NCBI GenBank assembly: GCA_025455065.1
Contig: JALONG010000004.1
Coordinates: forward strand, 86,690-150,689
Direction: 5' to 3'
DNA length: 64,000 nt
Source: Candidatus Kapaibacterium sp.
GTDB lineage: Bacteria > Bacteroidota > Ignavibacteria > Kapaibacteriales > UBA4661
Translations under genes and position numbers: made by a program
In this document: positions 16,250-57,000 of the stretch, piece by piece
Layout: every line of letters starts with the position of its first letter
How positions within the stretch are numbered: position 1 is the stretch's first letter
The notes under the pieces: model-generated
Databases searched by the model: none
Seen by the model: the letters and a program-made list of their open reading frames with translations, nothing else
What the model was told of the DNA's origin: nothing

Positions 16250-17662
16250 TTATTTCACACCACCCATCATCCTGCGAATATGCGGCGTGAGCAAGGCAAG
16301 AATCAGCGCAGCAAGCATCATCACGGCAGATAATACGCCGAAATACTGTACCAAAAATTCCGTATTTCGTTCATCGAAAAAGCCCGCTAAATAGCCTGCA
16401 ATGCGACTAGCAACGGCACTCGCCAAAAACCACACGCCCATCATCATCCCCACAAGCCTCACCGGTGCGAGTTTTGTTACAACACTCAGCCCCGTCGGGT
16501 TCAGCAGCACCGCACCAATTTCCTGCAAGAAAAATGCACCCAAAAGCCAGAACGGGCTTACTTCCCCGTGCCGTGCAGCCAAGGAAGCCGCAACCATGAC
16601 GCTGAACGCCAAACCGACAAAGAGCAGACTGAGCGCAAATTTCGTCGGTGAGGAAGGCTGCCGCTCCCCCAAGCTAATCCAGAGGCGCGACAGCAAAGGT
16701 GCAAGAATGATGACGTAAATCGGAATCACCGATTGAAACCAACTCGACGGAAATTCCCACGAGCCAATAGTGGTACGGGTTAGGCGGTCTGCAAAGAGAT
16801 TCATGCTGGAACCTGCCTGCTCGGAAACAATACCGAACAGCACCGTAAAGACGAACAAAATACCAATCACGCCCACACGCTGCCATTCTTCCCGGCTGAG
16901 GGCTGGGAGCGATAGCGATTGTTTCTGCATTGGGGCGTGTTTACGTTCACCAACGGCTTGAAAACGGTCTTGCGACGCGAGAAACTGCCACAGCCCAATC
17001 ATCATGCCCACTGCGGCTGCACCAAATCCCCAATGCCACGAATGAAGCGGGTTCAATCCCCAAACAAGCAGCAGTTCTTTGAAGAGCGGATGTTGCGCTA
17101 AAAATCCGCAGACAATAGGCGCACACGCCGCACCAACATTGATGCCCATAAAAAACAGCGAAAACCCCGCATCACGCCTTTCGTCGCCGTCGGGGTAGAG
17201 TTCCCCGACCATCGCACTGATGCTGGGTTTGAGCAAACCCGTTCCAAGCGTGATACACGCCAAACCCGCATAGAACCAGAGTATTTGCGTACTTGCGGCA
17301 ACAAGCGCAATCAAAAAATGTCCCAGCGCAATGATTCCGCCTCCGGCTATAACTGCCCGCCGTGCGCCGAGCCACCTGTCCGCAACAAAGCCCCCCGGCA
17401 GCGCCAAAAGATACACCCACATCGTATAAGTGCCGTAAATTGCCGTTGCAGTTTTTACATCCAGCGCCAAACCGCCTTCGGTGAGCGGTGCAACCATGTA
17501 GAGAATGAGAATTGCCCTCATTCCGTAATAGCTGAAGCGCTCCCACAGTTCGGTAAAAAACAGCGTCGTCAGCCCACGTGGATGCCCACCGATACCGCTT
17601 ACGTCGCTTGCAGTGTCGGTTTGATGTGGATTTGGTGCTGTGTTGTGGTGTGAAAACGCCAT
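16250..17662 (-). CDS. POT/PTR2-family proton-dependent di-/tripeptide transporter
   Basis: Motif ELWERFSYYGMRAILILYM plus 12-TM-like hydrophobicity. Start set to the internal Met (MAFSHH) at 17662, because the ORF's upstream extension overlaps the divergent gene. Confidence 0.8.
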   Translation of the reverse strand: MAFSHHNTAPNPHQTDTASDVSGIGGHPRGLTTLFFTELWERFSYYGMRAILILYMVAPLTEGGLALDVKTATAIYGTYTMWVYLLALPGGFVADRWLGARRAVIAGGGIIALGHFLIALVAASTQILWFYAGLACITLGTGLLKPSISAMVGELYPDGDERRDAGFSLFFMGINVGAACAPIVCGFLAQHPLFKELLLVWGLNPLHSWHWGFGAAAVGMMIGLWQFLASQDRFQAVGERKHAPMQKQSLSLPALSREEWQRVGVIGILFVFTVLFGIVSEQAGSSMNLFADRLTRTTIGSWEFPSSWFQSVIPIYVIILAPLLSRLWISLGERQPSSPTKFALSLLFVGLAFSVMVAASLAARHGEVSPFWLLGAFFLQEIGAVLLNPTGLSVVTKLAPVRLVGMMMGVWFLASAVASRIAGYLAGFFDERNTEFLVQYFGVLSAVMMLAALILALLTPHIRRMMGGVK

Positions 17663-17741
17663 ACTTGGTGCGTTCTTTCGTGCTTGCGGAAAAAAAGTAT
17701 TTTGCAAAGCACAAACATACCAAGATATTTGTGGAACGCCA

Positions 17742-18521
17742 ATGGGAAAACGATGGCGAATATTGCGACCAATCACAAACATTATGAATCTATATTTTTT
17801 ACCCTTTGCCGCATCGTTGCTGCTTTTTTTGCCGAAAGCACTCAATGCGCAAAATGATAACCCGCATTGGCGCATTGCGAGTACGTTTCTCCAAAACCGA
17901 AGACAAACCAATGACCCCACAAGAATAGCACTCGGCAGCGTACTCAATTTTTACGGCTATAACGACCTCCAGCCCCAATTTGAAAAAGATTTTTCTTCCA
18001 TTCCGAACCGTTATCAAACGGGCGAAAACTATGATAACTTTGTTGCCGACATGACGAACTGGACACTCCTTCCCATCTACTGGGGCGGTACGGCGTGGTC
18101 AACGGCGGTGTCGGTGGTCAGTTTTATAGGGGGTGATATTCTCGGCGGCATCTGGCACGCCTTCGGCGCGGTGCAGTGGTCACGTGGGGCAACATACCTG
18201 ACGTGGACAGCGAAACACGACTGGAATAAGCTCATAGGCGCACAGCGTACGGTACAAAAGCAAGTCTTTGTCATCCGCACCCAGTTCAATTTCCCATGGG
18301 TTTTTGCGGGCAACGTACTGCTGGATGTCGTTGAAGATACTGACGGCGATGGACTCTTTGGGGAGGAGGCGCAGAAATATAGAGGAACTAACTCTATTGG
18401 TTTATACGAAGCCGAAGGTATGAGCCATAATGTGTCCTCGAATCATCCAAAATCCAAACAGCAGTTTGAGAGAGCGTTTGATAACCCGAATATCCCATTT
18501 TACGCACCCAAAAGGAGATAA
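17742..18521 (+). CDS. Secreted hypothetical protein carrying a glycine-rich hydrophobic module (first gene of a four-gene cassette)
   Basis: Signal-peptide-like N-terminus (MGKRWRILRPITNIMNLYFLPFAASLLLFLPKALNAQ); the alternative start is 17784. Hydrophobic segment MTNWTLLPIYWGGTAWSTAVSVVSFIGGDILGGIWHAFGAVQW. No family recognised. Confidence 0.5.
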   Translation: MGKRWRILRPITNIMNLYFLPFAASLLLFLPKALNAQNDNPHWRIASTFLQNRRQTNDPTRIALGSVLNFYGYNDLQPQFEKDFSSIPNRYQTGENYDNFVADMTNWTLLPIYWGGTAWSTAVSVVSFIGGDILGGIWHAFGAVQWSRGATYLTWTAKHDWNKLIGAQRTVQKQVFVIRTQFNFPWVFAGNVLLDVVEDTDGDGLFGEEAQKYRGTNSIGLYEAEGMSHNVSSNHPKSKQQFERAFDNPNIPFYAPKRR

Positions 18522-18524
18522 TTT

Positions 18525-19718
18525 ATGAAACGCCTAATTCTTCGACTGTATTTCTTCTGTCTGTGCATTGCAAGCCTGAATGCTTCTGCTTGCGACCCTT
18601 TAACAAGTTCCAGAGAACAATTTCTTTGGAAACAATCACTTTCTGACGGAAAACTTATCGAAGGTGAGTTGCCTAATATTCTGTATAATGGCACTATTAT
18701 TTCACTAGGTATGAGTGGTGGTAAACGAACACTCTATGCTTTTGATGCAAGTAGTGGAGAACCTCGCTGGCGATGGTCAGATTGGTTTTTGAGTGATAGA
18801 AGCATTTTAGTGGATTATGTGCATACTTTTGATAACGTGCTTGTTATTTGTAACAGAGGACCGAATTATGGCATTGATACTCGTACAGGAAAAACAATCT
18901 GGAGCAATGACATAAAGAATAGAGAATCAGGCTCACAGGGAGCAAGCGGAATAGGACAATTATATTTTTTTGGTACTTATATTTCCGTGACAGAAAATTA
19001 TCTGATGCAAGGCAATATATACCGAGATGATGAGAGAGTTCTTGTTTCCTTACCTCGCGGAACAGGCGCAAAACACTCAACACCGTTTGTAGCCCAAAAC
19101 GGCGATACAATGCTGGTCTATTTCTCCACCTACGGAGAACCAGCAACAAATTTTCGGAACAGAACCTACATCAGTCTCTACAATGTCAGTAAACGCCAAG
19201 AAATCTATACTCTTCTTCAAGACACAAGTTCACCCGAAAATGCCAATGTTCTTACTGGCGGCGTTCCTTTAATCCGTAACAAAACTATTTATAGTGCTAT
19301 TGGGCGCAGTGTTCAAGCTAATGATATCGAAACAGGAAAACTCCTTTGGAGGACAAAAACGGAGTGGGATTTTAACGTCTCTGGTATAATTGAAGCTGAT
19401 GGAATAATTATTGGGAATAACCCAGATGGGTTTCTTCATGCTTTTGAAAGTCAAACAGGGAAATTATTATGGAGAGTTAAGGCTTCTGGAACTTCACGCA
19501 GACCTTTTTATATGAATGGTGTCGTTTACATCGTTGGTGTTGGGGATGGAAAATTATATGCGTTTGATGCAAAAACAGGCGATAAAATTTGGGCTTTTGA
19601 TTCTCCTGACGATAACGGTCGTTCTGGGTCTTCGTTTGATGGTATCGTTACAGGTGCGAACGGCAAAATCTATGCCCGCTCGTTTCTCAACCTCTACTGT
19701 TACAGAGCAGCACGATGA
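18525..19718 (+). CDS. Secreted PQQ-repeat-like (BamB-like) beta-propeller protein, possible lipoprotein
   Basis: Signal sequence with ...LNASAC. Repeated L(Y/H)AFDAxTGxxxW motifs (LYAFDASSGEPRWRW, GKLLWRTK, GKLLWRVK, LYAFDAKTGDKIWAF). Lies 4 bp after the upstream gene. Confidence 0.6.
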   Translation: MKRLILRLYFFCLCIASLNASACDPLTSSREQFLWKQSLSDGKLIEGELPNILYNGTIISLGMSGGKRTLYAFDASSGEPRWRWSDWFLSDRSILVDYVHTFDNVLVICNRGPNYGIDTRTGKTIWSNDIKNRESGSQGASGIGQLYFFGTYISVTENYLMQGNIYRDDERVLVSLPRGTGAKHSTPFVAQNGDTMLVYFSTYGEPATNFRNRTYISLYNVSKRQEIYTLLQDTSSPENANVLTGGVPLIRNKTIYSAIGRSVQANDIETGKLLWRTKTEWDFNVSGIIEADGIIIGNNPDGFLHAFESQTGKLLWRVKASGTSRRPFYMNGVVYIVGVGDGKLYAFDAKTGDKIWAFDSPDDNGRSGSSFDGIVTGANGKIYARSFLNLYCYRAAR

Positions 19719-19915
19719 GCAGAAGCATACATATTGCCGGCATGACGAACTGGACACTCCTCCCCGCCTTCTGGGGCGCGACGGCGTGGTCAACGGCGGT
19801 GTCGGTGGTAAACTTTGTGGGCGGTAATGTGGTGGGCGGGCTGTGGCACGCTTTCGGTGCTGTGCAGTGGTCACGCGATGAATTACTGGAAATGGCGCAA
19901 TCGCTGATTCGATAA
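19715..19915 (+). CDS. 66-aa orphan paralog of the glycine-rich hydrophobic module
   Basis: MTNWTLLPAFWGATAWSTAVSVVNFVGGNVVGGLWHAFGAVQWSRD aligns with 36 of 46 residues identical to residues of the 17742 gene. The start overlaps the upstream stop (ATGA). Confidence 0.4.
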   Translation: MSRSIHIAGMTNWTLLPAFWGATAWSTAVSVVNFVGGNVVGGLWHAFGAVQWSRDELLEMAQSLIR

Positions 19916-19948
19916 TTATTTATTCAATCACTATTTGGGAGTACAGTT

Positions 19949-20707
19949 ATGCGTGAAATCTTCGGCATCATCGTTCTCATGCTGCTTGGCGGCGTTGCAT
20001 GGATTCTTATTCACGGTTTTGGCACGGTTGCGCCGTTGGATTGGATTATTGCGCTTTTGACGCTGCTGTGGCTCATCGGCATTGTTACCGTGCCTTGGAA
20101 TATCTATTTTCAAACACGGGCAATTTTGGTCGAAGCCGAAGAATCGAAAAAGCGCGATATTTCGGTCGAAGAGGACAAAATCACCTACGCAAAACGTTGG
20201 TCGGAACGCGCGTTGGTACTGGCGTTGGTGCTGCATTTGGCTACGGCGCTGGGAATGTATTTTTTAGCGGCGTTTGGTGTGAGTTTTATCGGGTATTTCG
20301 GCGCGGGAGCGGCGCTTATGCTGACGTTTGTGCGCCCTATTGTGCGTGGGTATGAGTATGTGCGTAAGCGCCTCGCCACAATTCGGGAAGAAATCACTTA
20401 TCCACGTGAGGATGTTGTTTCGCTGAAAGCGCAGGTAGAAGATATGAAAGCGACGCTCGAAATGCTCGAAAAGCGTTTGGATGCAAGCGATTCCGATTCG
20501 TGGGCAGCAAAACAAGAACAGAATATGGAAGCGCTCCGCACTAAACTTGATTTGATGCGGCACAGAATAGACGATGCCCTCGAAACCAATAAACTCGACC
20601 ACGAGAAAATTTCCCGCGATGCGCAAAACGCAATGGCGCAAGCAATGGCGGATGCGGCGATTGTGAATCACGTCCGAGAGATTGTGCGCTTTTTCAAAGA
20701 AGCGTGA
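19949..20707 (+). CDS. Membrane protein with four predicted TM helices and a C-terminal coiled-coil domain
   Basis: N-terminal hydrophobic helices followed by a heptad-like E/K/L-rich C-terminal ~110 aa. Last gene of the cassette. Confidence 0.5.
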   Translation: MREIFGIIVLMLLGGVAWILIHGFGTVAPLDWIIALLTLLWLIGIVTVPWNIYFQTRAILVEAEESKKRDISVEEDKITYAKRWSERALVLALVLHLATALGMYFLAAFGVSFIGYFGAGAALMLTFVRPIVRGYEYVRKRLATIREEITYPREDVVSLKAQVEDMKATLEMLEKRLDASDSDSWAAKQEQNMEALRTKLDLMRHRIDDALETNKLDHEKISRDAQNAMAQAMADAAIVNHVREIVRFFKEA

Positions 20708-22998: not shown

Positions 22999-23115
22999 AC
23001 GCTTCTGAATCTTCTTGATGAAAGCGCCGTAATAGGACATAGCACAAGAGGCATTTAGCGAGTAGCATAGGCATTTTTACCTGTGCGAAACAGCCTACAA
23101 ATGTTACCAAATCTC

Positions 23116-23137
23116 GCACAGACAGGAATGTCTGTGC
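23116..23137. repeat. Palindromic repeat core gcacagacaggaatgtctgtgc (dispersed family member)
   Basis: Perfect 9-bp arms with a 4-nt spacer and the shared flanks ctcGCACAGACA...TGTCTGTGCcactga. Located in the lepA-lepB intergenic region. Confidence 0.7.
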
Positions 23138-23264
23138 CACTGATTGTCAAACTTACCATTTTGTGTTCGAGCCAATTCTCATACAAACAAAGGTATCGTA
23201 ATTCCGAACCATTACTTTTGAGACTTTTCCAAGCACTCAACCTTCTTTACTCATCATTTCAATT

Positions 23265-28245: not shown

Positions 28246-28326
28246 ACCAATACTCGCACAGACAAAAATGTCTGTGCCACTGAAGCCTGTTTTTATGCAC
28301 AATTATCAACTCAAATTGGTGTAACA
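28246..28326. repeat. Partial copy of the composite dispersed repeat (palindrome core plus 3' module)
   Basis: tactcGCACAGACAaaaaTGTCTGTGCcactgaagcctgtttttatgcacaattatcaactcaaattggt. Matches 50153-50205. Confidence 0.7.
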
Positions 28327-37622: not shown

Positions 37623-37667
37623 GTTTTACCGCTCAGGTATGACCGCTCAATGAGTTTTACCGCTCAG

Positions 37668-37775
37668 GTATTATACCAATTTACGTTGAAGATTGTGCAT
37701 TGTTTTTTCAATGCTTTTCTCTGGAAGCAGCATAAATACTCGCACAGACAAGAATGTCTGTGCCACTGACTTCTC
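37668..37775. repeat. Partial copy of the composite dispersed repeat (5' module plus palindrome core)
   Basis: tataccaatttacgttgaagattgtgcattgttttttcaatgcttttctctggaagcagcataaatactcGCACAGACAagaaTGTCTGTGCcactga. Matches 50019-50118. Confidence 0.75.
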
Positions 37776-38446
37776 CCAATATCATCATTGCCCTTGACGG
37801 TCCGGCAGGTTCGGGCAAAAGCACCACAGCTCGCCGTGTGGCGGAAGCGCTGGGCTATGTGTACATTGACACCGGCGCTATGTACCGCGCAATCACGCTT
37901 GCTGCCTTGCGGGAAGAACGCTCCATTACGAACTCCGACTTGCTTCCCATTGTCAAAGAGTATCAATTACAACTCACCATTTCACCCGACGGACAGCGTA
38001 CAATCTTGGGGCGCGAGGATGTTACCGAAGAAATTCGCTCGCCGGAAGTGACAAAACTTGTAAGCGCTGTTAGCGCTTTGCCGTCGGTGCGCGAAGCAAT
38101 GTCAAAACGGCAGCGCGAAATGGGCAAAAACGGTGGTGTTGTCATGGACGGGCGGGACATTGGAACGGTCGTGTTCCCCGAAGCCGAACTGAAAATTTTT
38201 CTTATAGCATCGCTCGAAGAACGCGCTAAACGCCGATTGGCGGAACTAAAGGACAGTTCTGTTTCGCTGGAAGAAATGTGCAAGCAAATCAGTGAACGCG
38301 ACAAGCAAGACACAGAGCGCCTTGTCAGCCCCTTGCGCAAAGCGGACGATGCCGTTGAAATTGATACTTCCGCGCTCAGTATTGATGCTCAAACAGAGCG
38401 TATTTTGGCGCTGGCACGGGAACGTATTGCGGCAAAGCGGGGATGA
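37754..38446 (+). CDS. cmk: Cytidylate kinase
   Basis: IIIALDGPAGSGKST P-loop and DTGAMYR motif. The ATG start lies inside the spacer of the palindromic repeat. Confidence 0.9.
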   Translation: MSVPLTSPNIIIALDGPAGSGKSTTARRVAEALGYVYIDTGAMYRAITLAALREERSITNSDLLPIVKEYQLQLTISPDGQRTILGREDVTEEIRSPEVTKLVSAVSALPSVREAMSKRQREMGKNGGVVMDGRDIGTVVFPEAELKIFLIASLEERAKRRLAELKDSSVSLEEMCKQISERDKQDTERLVSPLRKADDAVEIDTSALSIDAQTERILALARERIAAKRG

Positions 38447-48930: not shown

Positions 48931-50016
48931 ATGAAAACTCCCCCTTCATCCTCAACCACCCCGCGAACCCGCGCCCGTACTCGCTTCGGAGCGCAAGAAC
49001 ACTCTGCGCCCTCGCCAAATTCGCATGAGCAGTCAGAAAAGCATTCTCCAAGCGGTTTACAGGTCTTGCAGCAAATCCGCATTACGCCCCGTCGGTTGAA
49101 AGAATCGCTCACAACGGCAGAAATACTGACACTGACGATGCTTACGTTTTATACGGTTTTGGGCTGTATTTTTGCGACGGTCGTGGAAAATACGCTCATG
49201 TACATCGTGGTAAATTGCTGTTTTATGTGGATGCAATGCGCCTTAGCGGTAAGCGTGTCGGAGAACGAAACGGGGCGTATCTTTCGGTCATTGCTCATTG
49301 CGCGGCGATTTTTCCTGCTTCCGGCGATTTATTTCATTTACTCCCAATCCCACCTGTATATCACGCACATCAACCCGCATGATTACGACGCATTGCTGGC
49401 AGAATGGGACGTTGCGCTCTTTGGCGTGTATCCGACGCGCTGGATATATCAATTCGCACACCCGCTTTTGACGGAGTTCTTGCAAATTTGTTATTTCCTC
49501 TATTTCTGGATTCCCGTTGGCTTGGGGGCTGAATTTTACACGTCGCGCCCGACGATTTACTACACGCGCTATGCGCTTTACGTGGCGTGTGTGAGTTATG
49601 CGCTGTATCTGGGATATTTTTTTATGCCGGCAATCGGTCCTTGCTTCACGCTGCATGATTTTTCGCAGTGGAACGCCGAACTTCCGGGCATCGTTTTTGC
49701 CGAACCGCTCCGCGCTATTGTCAATAACGGCTCCGGCGCAGGCACGGCGACACCGCATCTGACCGCGCACCGCAACTGTATGCCAAGCGGTCACACGATG
49801 GTAACGCTGCTGAATATGATGATTGCTTTTCGGTGGAAGTCGCGTTTTCGCTGGGGGTATTTCGTTATTGGTTGCGGCATTATTGTTTCGACGATTTATC
49901 TGCGCTATCACTACGTGGTGGATTTGCTTGCCGGAGCGGTAGTAACGGTCTTGGCGCTGCTTTTTGCAAGGGTTTTGGAGCGTACCTTGAGGAAGATTGG
50001 TTTTGCTGCGGCGTAA
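48931..50016 (+). CDS. PAP2-superfamily membrane protein (phosphatase / phospholipid-headgroup transferase-like)
   Basis: PSGH and R-x5-H-x3-D motifs (CMPSGHT, RYHYVVDLLAG) in a multi-TM protein. Start uncertain; the N-terminal ~60 aa may not be coding. Confidence 0.55.
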   Translation: MKTPPSSSTTPRTRARTRFGAQEHSAPSPNSHEQSEKHSPSGLQVLQQIRITPRRLKESLTTAEILTLTMLTFYTVLGCIFATVVENTLMYIVVNCCFMWMQCALAVSVSENETGRIFRSLLIARRFFLLPAIYFIYSQSHLYITHINPHDYDALLAEWDVALFGVYPTRWIYQFAHPLLTEFLQICYFLYFWIPVGLGAEFYTSRPTIYYTRYALYVACVSYALYLGYFFMPAIGPCFTLHDFSQWNAELPGIVFAEPLRAIVNNGSGAGTATPHLTAHRNCMPSGHTMVTLLNMMIAFRWKSRFRWGYFVIGCGIIVSTIYLRYHYVVDLLAGAVVTVLALLFARVLERTLRKIGFAAA

Positions 50017-50018
50017 GG

Positions 50019-50205
50019 TTTTATACCAATTTACGCTGAGGATTGTGCATTATTTTTTCAATGCTTTTCTCTGGAAGCAGCATAAATACTCGCACAGACA
50101 AGAATGTCTGTGCCACTGACATAAATACTCGCACAGACAAGAATGTCTGTGCCACTGAAGCCGGATTTTTTTGCACAGTTATCAACTCAAATTGGTATTA
50201 TGCTG
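50019..50205. repeat. Most complete copy of the composite dispersed repeat (5' module, two tandem palindrome cores, 3' module), MITE/REP-like
   Basis: ttttataccaatttacgctgaggattgtgcattattttttcaatgcttttctctggaagcagcataaatactcGCACAGACAagaaTGTCTGTGCcactgacataaatactcGCACAGACAagaaTGTCTGTGCcactgaagccggatttttttgcacagttatcaactcaaattggt. Modules are shared with 37668-37775 and 28246-28326. Confidence 0.75.
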
Positions 50206-52290: not shown

Positions 52291-52420
52291 GTAGCACAGA
52301 CATTCCTGTCTGTGTCCGAAATGAGCAAAGCGAATAATCTTCAAGCAGGGTAATTTCAGTAAGATACGGCATTACGCCTATCGGCGTTAAAGACACAGAC
52401 AAGAGTGTCTGTGCCACGAA
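52291..52420. repeat. Two diverged, oppositely oriented palindrome cores (gtagcacagacattcctgtctgtg; gacacagacaagagtgtctgtgcc) flanking a small hairpin (acgcctatcggcgt)
   Basis: Members of the same CACAGACA-N-TGTCTGTG family. Located downstream of both convergent genes (AI-2E and mltG). Confidence 0.6.
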
Positions 52421-52486
52421 GAAATTCCTTGATGCTTAACTTGGATGAAGCCTATGATTTTGGACACGCTATTTTTTTCACCACCT

Positions 52487-53636: not shown

Positions 53637-54078
53637 TCTTCGTAGCACAGACATTCCTGTCTGTGTCCCTAACGCCGTTAGGCGTAATTCCGAAAGGACA
53701 GCAATGGGTGAAAATTCTTCCCGTAGCACAGACATTCCTGTCTGTGCCCCTAACGCCGTTAGGCGTAATTCCAAAAGAACAGCAATGGGTGAAAATTCTT
53801 CCCGTAGCACAGACATTCCTGTCTGTGCCCCTAACGCCGTCAGGCGTAATTCCGAAAGGCATAATACCAAAATCATCGTAACAACAACCTTTTCAAGATT
53901 ATACGCTTCGCGTATTAGTGACACAGACAAGAATGCCCGTGCTACGGGGGGAGAAGACATTCTTGTCTGTGTTTCTAACGCTGAAAGGCATAATACCGAA
54001 AGTATCGTAACAACAACCTTTTCAAGATTATACGCTTCGCGTATTAGTGGCACAGACAAGAATGTCTGTGCTACGGGT
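53637..54078. repeat. Tandem repeat array: three 81-bp units followed by two ~126-bp units, each containing the CACAGACA-N3-TGTCTGTG palindrome (not CRISPR)
   Basis: Units start at 53641, 53722 and 53803 and are nearly identical (cgtagcacagacattcctgtctgtg[t/c]ccctaacgccgttaggcgtaattcc...agcaatgggtgaaaattcttcc). A second unit type starts at 53858 and 53984 (ggcataatacc...cgtattagtg[a/g]cacagacaagaatg...). Lies in the divergent mltG / M1-peptidase intergenic region. Confidence 0.8.
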
Positions 54079-54080
54079 GT

Positions 54081-57000
54081 CATTGTGTTACTTCTGATGC
54101 TTGCCGCACTATCCCTCCAAGCCCAGCCCACAAGCGGCTTCCCGCAAAACCTCGAAGAACGCCTCAAACAAGAGCGCCTCGCGGGGCTTGTCCACACGAT
54201 GAACGTTACGGTTAATGATGATGATTACACCTTCAAAGGCACGTCCCGCGTGGAGTTCACCAATAACACGCCTGACACGCTGCGCCAAATCTTCTTCCAC
54301 GCCCATTTCAACGCCTTTCAGCCGAACAGCCTCACGCATAAGCGCGTTGCGGCAATCGGTCCGAACCGCTTAAAACCTGAAACCTTTGCTAATCTCAAAC
54401 CAAACGAAATCGGCAAACTTGACATTCTGCCCGGCACAAGTAATGGAGCGCCTTTCACGGTAGAGCGCTTGGGAACGATTATCCGCTTAGACCTTGCAAA
54501 ACCGCTTCTGCCCGAAGAGCGCACCACGCTTGAGTTTGCCTTTGAGGGACAAGTTCCCGTGCAGGTGCGGCGCTCAGGGCGCAATAATGCTCAAGGTGTG
54601 CGCTATTCGATGGCGCAATGGTTTCCGAAATTATGTCAATACGACCAACACGGCTGGCAAAATAACCAATTTGTTTTGCGAGAATTTTACGGCGTGTGGG
54701 GTAAATATGATGTGAAAATTACGCTTCCCGCAAAGTACGTCGTTGGCGCTTCCGGCGACCTCCAAAACCCGCAAGAATGCGGCTTCGGCTATCCCTTCAC
54801 CGGAAGCGCCGCAAGCGACACAACCGTTATGCCGCTTCCCGATGCACAAAAGCCACAAGGCACGAAAACATGGCACTTTGTGGCATTTCCCGTGCATGAT
54901 TTCGCGTGGGTTGCCGATGCGGACTATATTCACCGCGTCGTCAAAATGCCAGTTTCTTCGCCAGTTTCGGCAGGAATGACCTTTCACATTCTCACCAAAC
55001 CCAAGTACGACGCGGTTTGGAAGAACGCTGTGGATTGGCTGCCGCGTGTCTTTCGCTTTATGGGCGAGAAGTATTTGCCATATCCTTACAAGCAATTTAC
55101 CTGCACACAAGCGGGCGACGGCGGTATGGAGTACCCAAATTTGGTGATGATTCGGAGCGGTGATTACAACGGGACGCTTGGCACAGTCGCGCACGAGGCA
55201 ATACACCAGTGGTTTTACGGCATGGCGGCGAATAACGAAACCAAACACGCTTGGATGGACGAAGGCATCACCGATTACCTCACCGACCGCATTATGGCTG
55301 AGGAGTTTAAGATTGATGAGCAGCAGCGCTCCACGTGGCTAGAGCAGACGCTCATTCCGCGCCGCAAGGACGCTTTAGAATCGAATCGGGCGTTTTTGCG
55401 GGTGTATGCGCTTGGCTACGATGAACCGCTCTCTATCCCGCATGACCGCTTTAACGAGGACATGACCGCCGTGATGGTTTACCGCAAAGGTTCGGCGTGG
55501 ATGCGGCAATTTGAGTATTCGTTTGGCAAGGACAAGGTTGATGAACTACTGAGGAATTATCAGGCTCAGTGGCGTTTCCGTCACCCATATCCGCCGGATT
55601 TCGAGAAATTGGCAAGCGAAACTTTTGGGCAGCGCATGGATGAAGTGTTTGACACCTTTTTGCGCGGCACGGAACTTCCCGATTACACGCTTCAATCCTT
55701 GCGTTCTGAGCCGACAAGCGACGGAAAATTCAAAAACACGCTGCAAATGACCAAACGCGAACGCGCTCACGTGCCGCTTCGCCTCTTTGCAACGGATGTG
55801 GGCGGTCAGCGCAGCATTTTGACGATTCCCAGCGATATGCTGAATGCGCCAAACAACGACACAAGCCGCCTTGCGCCTTGGTTCTGGGCAGCAGGCGATT
55901 ACACCGCAGAATTTATCACCCAAACCCCACTCCGTGAAGTTCGGCTGGACACCGCAGGAAATCTGCTTCGCCAAGACCTCACGAAAAATAGCATTCAAGC
56001 GGGCGGATTGTTTCCTGCCATGCCGGATGTCAAATTCGGCTTTATGACGCGCTTCGACGAAGCTATGCCGCTTGATTATTATGGTGTGTCGGTGCGCCCG
56101 TCGGTGTGGTTTGACCCGCTTGGGGGCTTGCAACTTGGGGTAAGGGCGGATGGTGTTGGCGGCTACAATACGCCAAAAATCACGGCTGGGGCGTATTACA
56201 ATTTGGGGAATCGGCGGTTTGATTGGCAGGTGGGGCTTCAGCAGACGCTTGGCGGGAATGGGGTTATTAACACTTTTGACGCGAAAATCTTTAGTATGGA
56301 TGGAGTTCGTGGGGTTTCTTTGCGGGCATTGAACGACATTCGCCCAACGCGATATGCCCGTGAGTCATTCGGGCTGAGTTCGATAATGATTGACTTTTTA
56401 GACTTCGGAGATGATAGTTATCTACTGCCCGAAATATCCAGTACAACCTTCAGAGGTGCAATGATGCGGTTGGGTGCAATCAGTGAACAACGCTGGCGAA
56501 ATGGCTATGTGCAATTAGAGGCAAATATTTCGTCTGACGGTTTTATTTTTATCGACGGACAAGTTCGATTTGAATGGTCAGACACTTTTTTTGAATCACC
56601 GTATTTCAGCATAAAACCTCGTGCTTTCGTGTATTTGGCAACTATCGGAACGCCGCGCTTCTTACAATATTCCCTTCAAAGTGGTACTTCACTAGAGCGT
56701 TTTGAAAATATACCGGCACGCTATACACGTTTCGCGGCTTACAATTTTAATCTCCCTGTTTTCACACAAGGAGGCGGTGGGTTCGTAAATTCTGCAAACG
56801 AGGCGACAAGCGCTATTGCGGCTGTCAATCTCTTTTTGGGGAACAAAACACTTAGATCAATGGGCGTAAATATTTTTGGAATTGAAGTGCTAAAGCCCGG
56901 TGCATGGATTTCAGCAGCGTTTGCGCCCATACGTACCCAAAGTTCTTTTGACTTCAACTTCGACTCCGGCATCTCACTCGGCATCAATCTCGCAGACATC

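Follow-up and report, generated by a model that had tools for sequence, protein, structure and literature searches.

A duplicated 142-nt module in a Candidatus Kapaibacterium contig and a candidate tandem array of hydrolase fragments and PQQ lipoprotein genes

A 64,000-nt stretch of contig JALONG010000004.1 from Candidatus Kapaibacterium sp. (assembly GCA_025455065.1), called the window here, carries two in-frame copies of a coding module of about 140 bp. The first copy lies in a gene, X, that corresponds to the C-terminal half of a secreted lipase-like hydrolase; the second lies in a 66-amino acid (aa) open reading frame (ORF), X', that begins where the intervening gene for a PQQ beta-propeller lipoprotein ends. 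The two copies would be the 5' ends of successive units in a tandem array of hydrolase-fragment/PQQ cassettes, in which X' is the stump left by a deletion and the locus as a whole is a disarmed effector with its immunity gene retained. We give this reading as a whole a probability of about 70%. The features on which it is built are the following (L and P numbers denote loci and database proteins).

17742-18521, plus strand: gene X, 259 aa (alternative ATG at 17784, 245 aa), signal peptide and hydrolase C-terminal half
18043-18184, plus strand: module copy 1, residues about 87-134 of X, the turn-proximal part of a two-helix hairpin between beta6 and beta7
18525-19718, plus strand: gene for a 397-aa beta-propeller lipoprotein of the PQQ_2/BamB-like type; signal peptide, conserved Cys (..LNASAC followed by D)
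19715-19915, plus strand: X', 66 aa, a 9-residue leader, the module and an unrelated 12-residue tail, its ATG overlapping the PQQ stop codon
19734-19875, plus strand: module copy 2, one repeat unit (1691 nt) downstream of copy 1
19874-19881, plus strand: proposed deletion junction, CGCGATGA, which also forms the final 8 nt of the L006 PQQ gene

Two homologous copies of about 140 bp had been described in an earlier note made from the sequence alone, and local alignment bears this out. Positions 18043-18184 and 19734-19875 align over 142 nt without gaps, with 118 identical positions (83.1%) and 24 differences. The blastn E value is 2e-38, the next best match within the window having an E value of about 2, and a repeat finder recovers the same pair as its family D3 with a spacing of 1691 nt. 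The E value rules out a chance origin, and an assembly artefact was rejected as the source since the copies differ at 24 of the 142 positions. Both copies are in frame and encode the peptide MTNWTLLP...GAVQWSR with 36 of 45 residues identical, essentially the 36 of 46 counted before; when four flanking residues are added, 37 of 49 are identical. The differences had been called mostly synonymous or conservative, with the frame kept. Over the 45 codons the synonymous divergence (dS) is 0.52, the nonsynonymous divergence (dN) 0.12 and their ratio (omega) 0.23, a ratio that covers both branches since the divergence and is not assignable to the X' branch. The synonymous excess has a Fisher p of 0.026, computed on the counts of the 49-codon comparison (omega 0.33) and not on the 45-codon module. 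Alignment and dN/dS thus uphold the similarity and the frame. Of the further proposal that both copies are under selection, the synonymous excess stands; selection on the second copy is not established, because omega spans both branches and the ends of the stumps vary.

The module copies have a G+C content of 61-65%. They are Gly/Trp-rich and moderately hydrophobic, with a maximal Kyte-Doolittle 19-residue mean of 1.2-1.4; the usual transmembrane threshold is 1.6. No module copies beyond the two, and no PQQ genes beyond the one, were found by tblastn in the window. An Rfam scan of 17400-20200 at E values up to 0.1 gave no match, hence no evidence of an RNA element behind the DNA conservation, and a scan for sigma-70 promoters and terminators did no better than on shuffled sequence.

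Neither X nor the 66-aa ORF matches a Pfam or NCBIfam model. P0001 is 100% identical to X and, at 259 aa, has the length predicted from the ATG at 17742. A profile of the X family, run against 1.84 billion representative proteins, retrieves secreted PGAP1-like hydrolases of 407-561 aa at E values of 1e-7 to 1e-4. These have signal peptides, a GHSMGG nucleophile elbow, and PGAP1-like and Abhydrolase matches, and the lipase-like family was assigned as PGAP1-like, PF07819. X aligns with their last ~200 residues; comparison of the X family with the hydrolase C-termini by hhalign gives a probability of 99.3% (E = 2.8e-20, 120 columns). S87, D379 and H405 are invariant among the 44 aligned full-length members. 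X carries an Asp motif, DGDGLF, and a His motif, SHNVSSNHP (the C-terminal motifs of the family being SDGL..Q for Asp and GV(S/N)H.E.NH for His); its D189 aligns with D379 and its H215 with H405, and both residues are also invariant within the X family. The alignment of X starts only at strand beta6, which precedes the second helical insertion, and X has no GxSxG elbow. A search of the window and the related loci for the N-terminal half with the Ser nucleophile gave no significant match. On sequence grounds, X is a secreted lipase-like alpha/beta-hydrolase reduced to its C-terminal half, without the nucleophile half. Three giant proteins (P0015, P0017 and P0024) also matched the profile in multiple stretches; these matches are probably compositional, from the Gly/Trp-rich module, and were set aside.

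A full-length relative, P0029, was modelled with AlphaFold2 (AF2) because the model of X itself was unusable. The P0029 model has a predicted local distance difference test score (pLDDT) of 86 and a predicted template modelling score (pTM) of 0.81, and its best matches in the PDB are the family I.1/I.2 bacterial lipases, with TM-scores of 0.3-0.46. The module (X residues 90-134) maps to residues 264-298 of P0029, within the helices at 256-281 and 283-314. The Gly/Trp-rich, only moderately hydrophobic composition of the module fits a lid or an element at an interface better than a transmembrane peptide. The earlier note had likened the copies to orphan toxin modules and to membrane-peptide families. 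The first half of the analogy gains from the arrays of hydrolase fragments and PQQ lipoproteins in the relatives; the second half has to be given up, the hydrophobicity being below 1.6 and the module a helical hairpin inside a lipase-like fold. In L006 (1-165), frame 2 upstream of X is still hydrolase-like (..YPS(stop)YLNNTNGN.., compare GSxYINNIN of P0026); this remnant is broken by a stop codon and a frameshift and is cut by the contig end. This decayed upstream hydrolase sequence shows that X descends from a longer gene.

The lipoprotein encoded next to X matches PF13360 at 85.6 bits. It shares with BamB this Pfam family and the lipoprotein signal, but its scores miss the BamB equivalog cut-offs (TIGR03300, 72.7 against 285.2; NF008351, 44.4 against 423), and it differs from BamB in being tied genetically to a hydrolase fragment and in being variable in copy number. 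It is most likely a cognate periplasmic binder or inhibitor of the hydrolase, that is, a putative immunity protein. The G+C content of the gene, 40.7%, contrasts with 48.7% for the window and 61-65% for the modules, a compositional break compatible with a foreign origin of the cassette.

The pairing of hydrolase and propeller is found well beyond the window. Gene order places a PQQ_2 gene directly 3' of the hydrolase gene, usually overlapping it, in several unrelated contexts (L012/L013, L014, L016 and contig YMrBFs5W) and in L015. Members of Bacteroidota, Ignavibacteria and Kapabacteria share the pairing, and every full-length relative in other Bacteroidota has a PQQ propeller gene after it. 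The complete genome of Marivirga arenosa (CP129970.2; L015, 8001-14640) has four PQQ paralogues downstream of one full-length hydrolase gene; in front of each is an ORF of 48-50 aa in which the last ~45 residues of the hydrolase recur, with differing extreme tails. The C-terminal thirds of these paralogues are identical and the N-terminal parts have diverged; the organism has been cultured. In L014 (8001-9961) a serine-less 246-aa half-hydrolase, P0012, is followed by a PQQ gene, the two lying between alr and an ABC transporter. Because this distant lineage also has a serine-less half beside a PQQ gene, loss of the nucleophile half with the partner kept has either occurred repeatedly or is ancient. 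P0125 was considered as a hydrolase-PQQ fusion and rejected, since its gene call is frameshifted, with out-of-frame low-complexity sequence after about residue 350; the adjacency of the two genes is visible there all the same. Full-length hydrolase genes are also preceded by a lipoprotein gene whose family is unassigned (279-303 aa, 25% identity, E = 1e-21), at 7077-7988 in L015 and 4094-4933 in L012. This upstream lipoprotein has no Pfam match and is absent from the window locus. Genes of 306 aa and 224 aa occupy the same position in two other contigs.

Close relatives are rare: among 5.8 billion proteins, six sequences match X and two match X'. Their loci vary in the number and completeness of the units, as in the following four.

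L007 (Ignavibacteria metagenome-assembled genome (MAG) Clear-D13): ECH, Xa, PQQ, Xb, PQQ, Xc, EF-G gene (opposite strand)
L002: one PQQ gene, then a degraded X, between ECH and the EF-G gene, where L007 has two PQQ genes
L001: X, PQQ, X2 (107 aa, C-domain only, starting MKAAKHDW), PQQ, X3 (75 aa)
L008: X, PQQ, X'; identity to the window 93%; X' of the type seen in L001, broken off after 28 module residues

In L007, Xa starts inside the module, Xb (163 aa) consists of the module and the C-domain with its ATG overlapping the PQQ stop codon, and Xc is a frameshifted C-domain. X3 of L001 is the module plus 23 X-derived residues, and contig DwbKnyBG has the same 75-aa stub with one unit fewer than L001. 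Thus X occurs in four forms (full, module plus C-domain, C-domain only, and module only) and its copy number is strain-variable. Truncated copies that share the homology stretch and have each their own partner gene are present in L007, L001, L009 and the Marivirga locus; the second copy in the window has neither the C-domain nor a second PQQ gene and is a stump only. The C-domain-only copies (L001 1407-1445, L007 9646-9690 and L009 1556-1600) all start with MKAAKHDW, and their junction to the PQQ stop codon contains a short direct repeat (AAAGCAGCA..CGATGA followed by A(A/G)GCAGCGAAACACGAC), which points to an old microhomology junction common to these copies. At 3090-3213 of L008, the half-module of X' runs directly into a second, diverged copy of the region upstream of X (compare L008 901-1045 and window 17634-17755). 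A 66-nt stretch of that copy is 100% identical to window ~17695-17755 (..TTTTGCAAAGCACAAACATACCAAGATATTTGTGGAACGCCAATGGGAAAACGATG); it may be a duplicated promoter or leader, and is present once in the window.

X' had been taken for a free-standing ORF with a stop codon 12 codons past the module. The stop is indeed there, in the ORF at 19715-19915, but the start codon shares the ATGA at 19715-19718 with the TGA stop of the PQQ gene before it. Complete X copies further down the arrays of L007, L001 and L008 begin in the same overlapping way. Homology to X ends at 19875. All PQQ genes of the family end in ..GCAGC(A/G)CGATGA, and their last 24 nt are near-invariant across all loci. A MAFFT pairing of the X' tail, DELLEMAQSLIR, with DGLFGEEAQKYRG of X was dismissed as chance, with about 5 matches in 12 and no homology to X downstream by tblastn. 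The only database match of X' outside this MAG, P0008, is truncated differently, and the module-only stumps end at different points: X' has 66 aa, its counterpart in L001 has 75 aa, and in L008 unrelated sequence sets in after about 28 module residues. Varying ends of this kind argue for decay or deletion rather than for a conserved small gene, and because the truncation points are lineage-specific X' is probably the stump of a second cassette unit, a remnant and not a dedicated gene. That the 66-aa ORF has no function, and where exactly the deletion junction lies, are inferences.

Comparison of near-identical strains shows mosaicism at the locus. Between the window and L008 there are 0 mismatches over about 800 nt (18390-19170), flanked by dense differences at 17970-18270, which include module copy 1, and at 19230-19800, which include the 3' third of the PQQ gene and X'. 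Within the module, the middle of the L008 X resembles the window X', and the window X resembles X3 of L001. In distant pairs the dS of the module is 2-5 times below that of the C-domain: 0.61 against 1.21 for window X and L007 Xb, and 1.11 against 3.49 for window X and L006. The closest pair shows the opposite order (0.54 against 0.10). Such a pattern is the expected signature of repeated exchange of the module. The PQQ genes are mosaic as well; those of L011 and L008 are 98% identical in the last third and 58% in the first. Among the X copies omega is 0.06-0.33 at dS values of 0.7 or more. Because the low values include pairs with the same truncated architecture (L001 X2 and L009 X2, omega 0.16), the codon comparisons show purifying selection on the X fragments, which have been constrained as proteins.

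These observations can be drawn together in one mechanism. A unit of about 1.69 kb would consist of the 3' part of the hydrolase gene, from the hairpin module onward, and the PQQ lipoprotein gene, with the ATG of the next unit overlapping the stop codon of the preceding PQQ gene. In the window the first unit would be complete, made up of X, which here carries a signal peptide and a short N-domain in addition, and PQQ after it. The second would have been cut to its first 55 codons by a deletion at a CGCG microhomology, running from the end of the module to the end of the second PQQ gene and removing the C-domain of X' together with PQQ. The end of the module would thereby have been fused to the last 8 nt of the second PQQ gene and the frame shifted, giving the 12 extra codons; the lost gene is predicted to have ended in ..CGCGATGA, with ATTACTGGAAATGG following it. 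The module and the near-invariant PQQ 3' end may together serve as a substrate for homologous recombination, through which units are created, deleted and reshuffled between copies and strains. X would be a disarmed effector and the PQQ lipoprotein the retained immunity protein. The toxin/immunity function is drawn from analogy: amplification and divergence of the partner, enzyme stubs between the partners, and loss of the catalytic half with the partner kept look like the pattern of effector/immunity loci.

Several points weigh against this reading. No secretion-system genes were seen beside any of the loci, and the full-length relatives bear Sec signal peptides, unlike the Tle effectors of the type VI secretion system (T6SS). 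The C-domains of X are all homologous, at 60-85% identity, and not polymorphic in fold, which sets them apart from classical polymorphic toxins. The AF2 model of X itself is poor (pLDDT 37.6, from a 6-sequence alignment). The deletion junction is placed by an 8-nt match, and with an omega of 0.23 between the two copies in the window the 66-aa ORF could still be constrained. Because the nucleophile is absent, X alone cannot be an active serine hydrolase; yet the purifying selection on X is unexplained by a simple view of dead remnants.

The hydrolase-PQQ pair could also be an enzyme with an accessory factor (a chaperone or foldase, an anchor or a substrate-binding partner), the duplication being neutral tandem-repeat dynamics. 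The closest folds are those of the family I.1/I.2 lipases, which classically lie beside a foldase gene, and complexes of lipase and foldase are represented by 2es4 and 9g8u; the upstream lipoprotein, conserved as a third gene in the full-length systems, suggests a multi-protein envelope complex, and the lack of secretion-system genes nearby fits as well. The known foldases (Lif), however, are alpha-helical and not beta-propellers, four divergent partner paralogues beside one enzyme gene are typical of immunity repertoires, and a partner kept where the catalytic half of the enzyme is lost (window, L014, L007) is again immunity-like. We consider an accessory factor unlikely, though it deserves to be kept in view. 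If the serine-less half-lipases form a family of functional pseudoenzymes, their Asp/His face and lid hairpin would be kept to work with the diversifying PQQ lipoproteins, with the module and the PQQ 3' end as handles for cassette switching. This would be an undescribed effector/immunity-derived system of Kapabacteria and Ignavibacteria and the first lipase-tied beta-propeller immunity family, a proposal that is speculative and rather unlikely.

The 66-aa ORF may itself be a functional small protein, a hydrophobic, Trp/Gly-rich helical hairpin translationally coupled to the PQQ gene, whose role could be, for example, that of a membrane-associated partner of the propeller lipoprotein, its decoy or its regulator. 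Its frame is intact and its start is ATGA-coupled, omega between the modules is 0.23 with a significant synonymous excess, the module is moderately hydrophobic, and an intact 75-aa module-only ORF follows the last PQQ gene in L001. But the C-terminal ends vary by lineage (12 unrelated residues here, 23 X-derived residues in L001, within the module in L008), the sole match outside this MAG, P0008, is differently truncated, omega is not assignable to the X' branch, the overlapped start is inherited from the architecture of the array, and the hydrophobicity is under the transmembrane range, so that a small-protein function seems quite improbable. Still less probable is that the modules are silent recombination cassettes. 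In that case X fragments and stumps would be donors or acceptors in exchanges with a complete hydrolase gene that has the Ser and lies at another place in the genome or in the population, the conserved module giving the homology handle, in the manner of orphan cdiA-CT, rhs-CT or mafB-CT. The low synonymous divergence of the module and its phylogeny, incongruent with that of the C-domain, would agree with such swapping, as would the replacement patches centred on both modules between near-identical strains, the downstream copies that begin exactly at the module, and the purifying selection on X fragments without a nucleophile. Yet the search of 1.84 billion representative proteins turned up no full-length hydrolase with a closely related module (the nearest full-length match has an E value of about 1e-7), the window and the fetched loci yielded none either, and the C-domains are not polymorphic.

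The array of hydrolase fragments and partner genes has its nearest parallel in the orphan rhs-CT/cdiA-CT/mafB-CT cassettes (Zhang et al. 2012, PMC3482391). Common to both are a first gene, a partner, and then N-terminally truncated copies with their own partners, together with variable copy number, mosaic sequences and deletion stumps. They differ in that the C-terminal domains here are all homologous and not different toxin folds, and in that the main gene of this clade is without the nucleophile half, toxicity here being putative. Unlike polymorphic toxins, no dedicated secretion or trafficking domain or apparatus was identified here. The T6SS Tle-Tli pairs resemble the present one in having a lipase-like alpha/beta-hydrolase with GxSxG beside one or several genes for lipoproteins that would be located in the periplasm, the place of action expected for a lipase aimed at membranes, with arrays of paralogues. 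They differ in that the full-length relatives here carry Sec signal peptides ending in ..AQ, and no vgrG, hcp or PAAR gene was found among the called genes flanking L012, L014 and L015. A known Tli has ankyrin repeats and not a PQQ propeller; PefE of Proteus mirabilis is a predicted beta-propeller immunity protein, the only such precedent found (bioRxiv 10.1101/2023.03.28.534661). LipA-Lif/LipB gives the best structural matches and likewise consists of a lipase gene followed by the gene for an envelope-anchored partner, but the partner here is a beta-propeller lipoprotein and not a helical Lif, and the hydrolase here contains two large insertions of helices. Moreover, neither amplification of the partner nor truncation of the enzyme is a trait of lipase-foldase operons. 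A literature search found no paper on this hydrolase-PQQ pair.

Taken alone, the duplication is ordinary genome dynamics, what unequal crossing-over and deletion leave behind in a tandem array. It is of value for the unannotated pair that it brings to light, a PQQ lipoprotein coupled to a secreted lipase-like hydrolase, with hallmarks of a conflict locus: the partner is amplified, fragments are orphaned, recombination is mosaic and the catalytic half has been lost. Should the pair indeed be effector and immunity protein, it would add a beta-propeller class of immunity proteins and a Sec-dependent lipase effector outside Proteobacteria, and would give names to proteins without Pfam or NCBIfam assignment. 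The most interesting point is the conserved, selected serine-less fragments, which make a specific and testable puzzle.

The neighbours of the locus in the window include a POT transporter, an ABC transporter, LepA and signal peptidase. The POT-family peptide transporter gene lies at 16250-17661 on the minus strand, divergent from X; its listed 565-aa ORF is overextended upstream, and the likely start is MAFSHHNTAP.. near 17661. A palindrome resembling repetitive extragenic palindromic (REP) elements (..CGCACAGACAAGAATGTCTGTGCCAC..) is present at seven or more sites in the window, and other repeats overlap it or lie around it.

23109-23154, 28249-28294, 37735-37780, 50085-50169, 52386-52431 and 54043-54088: REP-like sites
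53641-53883: three tandem copies of an 81-nt unit around the REP-like palindrome
37666-37770 and 50016-50120: direct repeat of 105 nt, 96% identity, 12.35 kb apart, overlapping REP-like elements
53847-53948 and 53976-54077: direct repeat of 102 nt, 91% identity, 129 nt apart, overlapping REP-like elements

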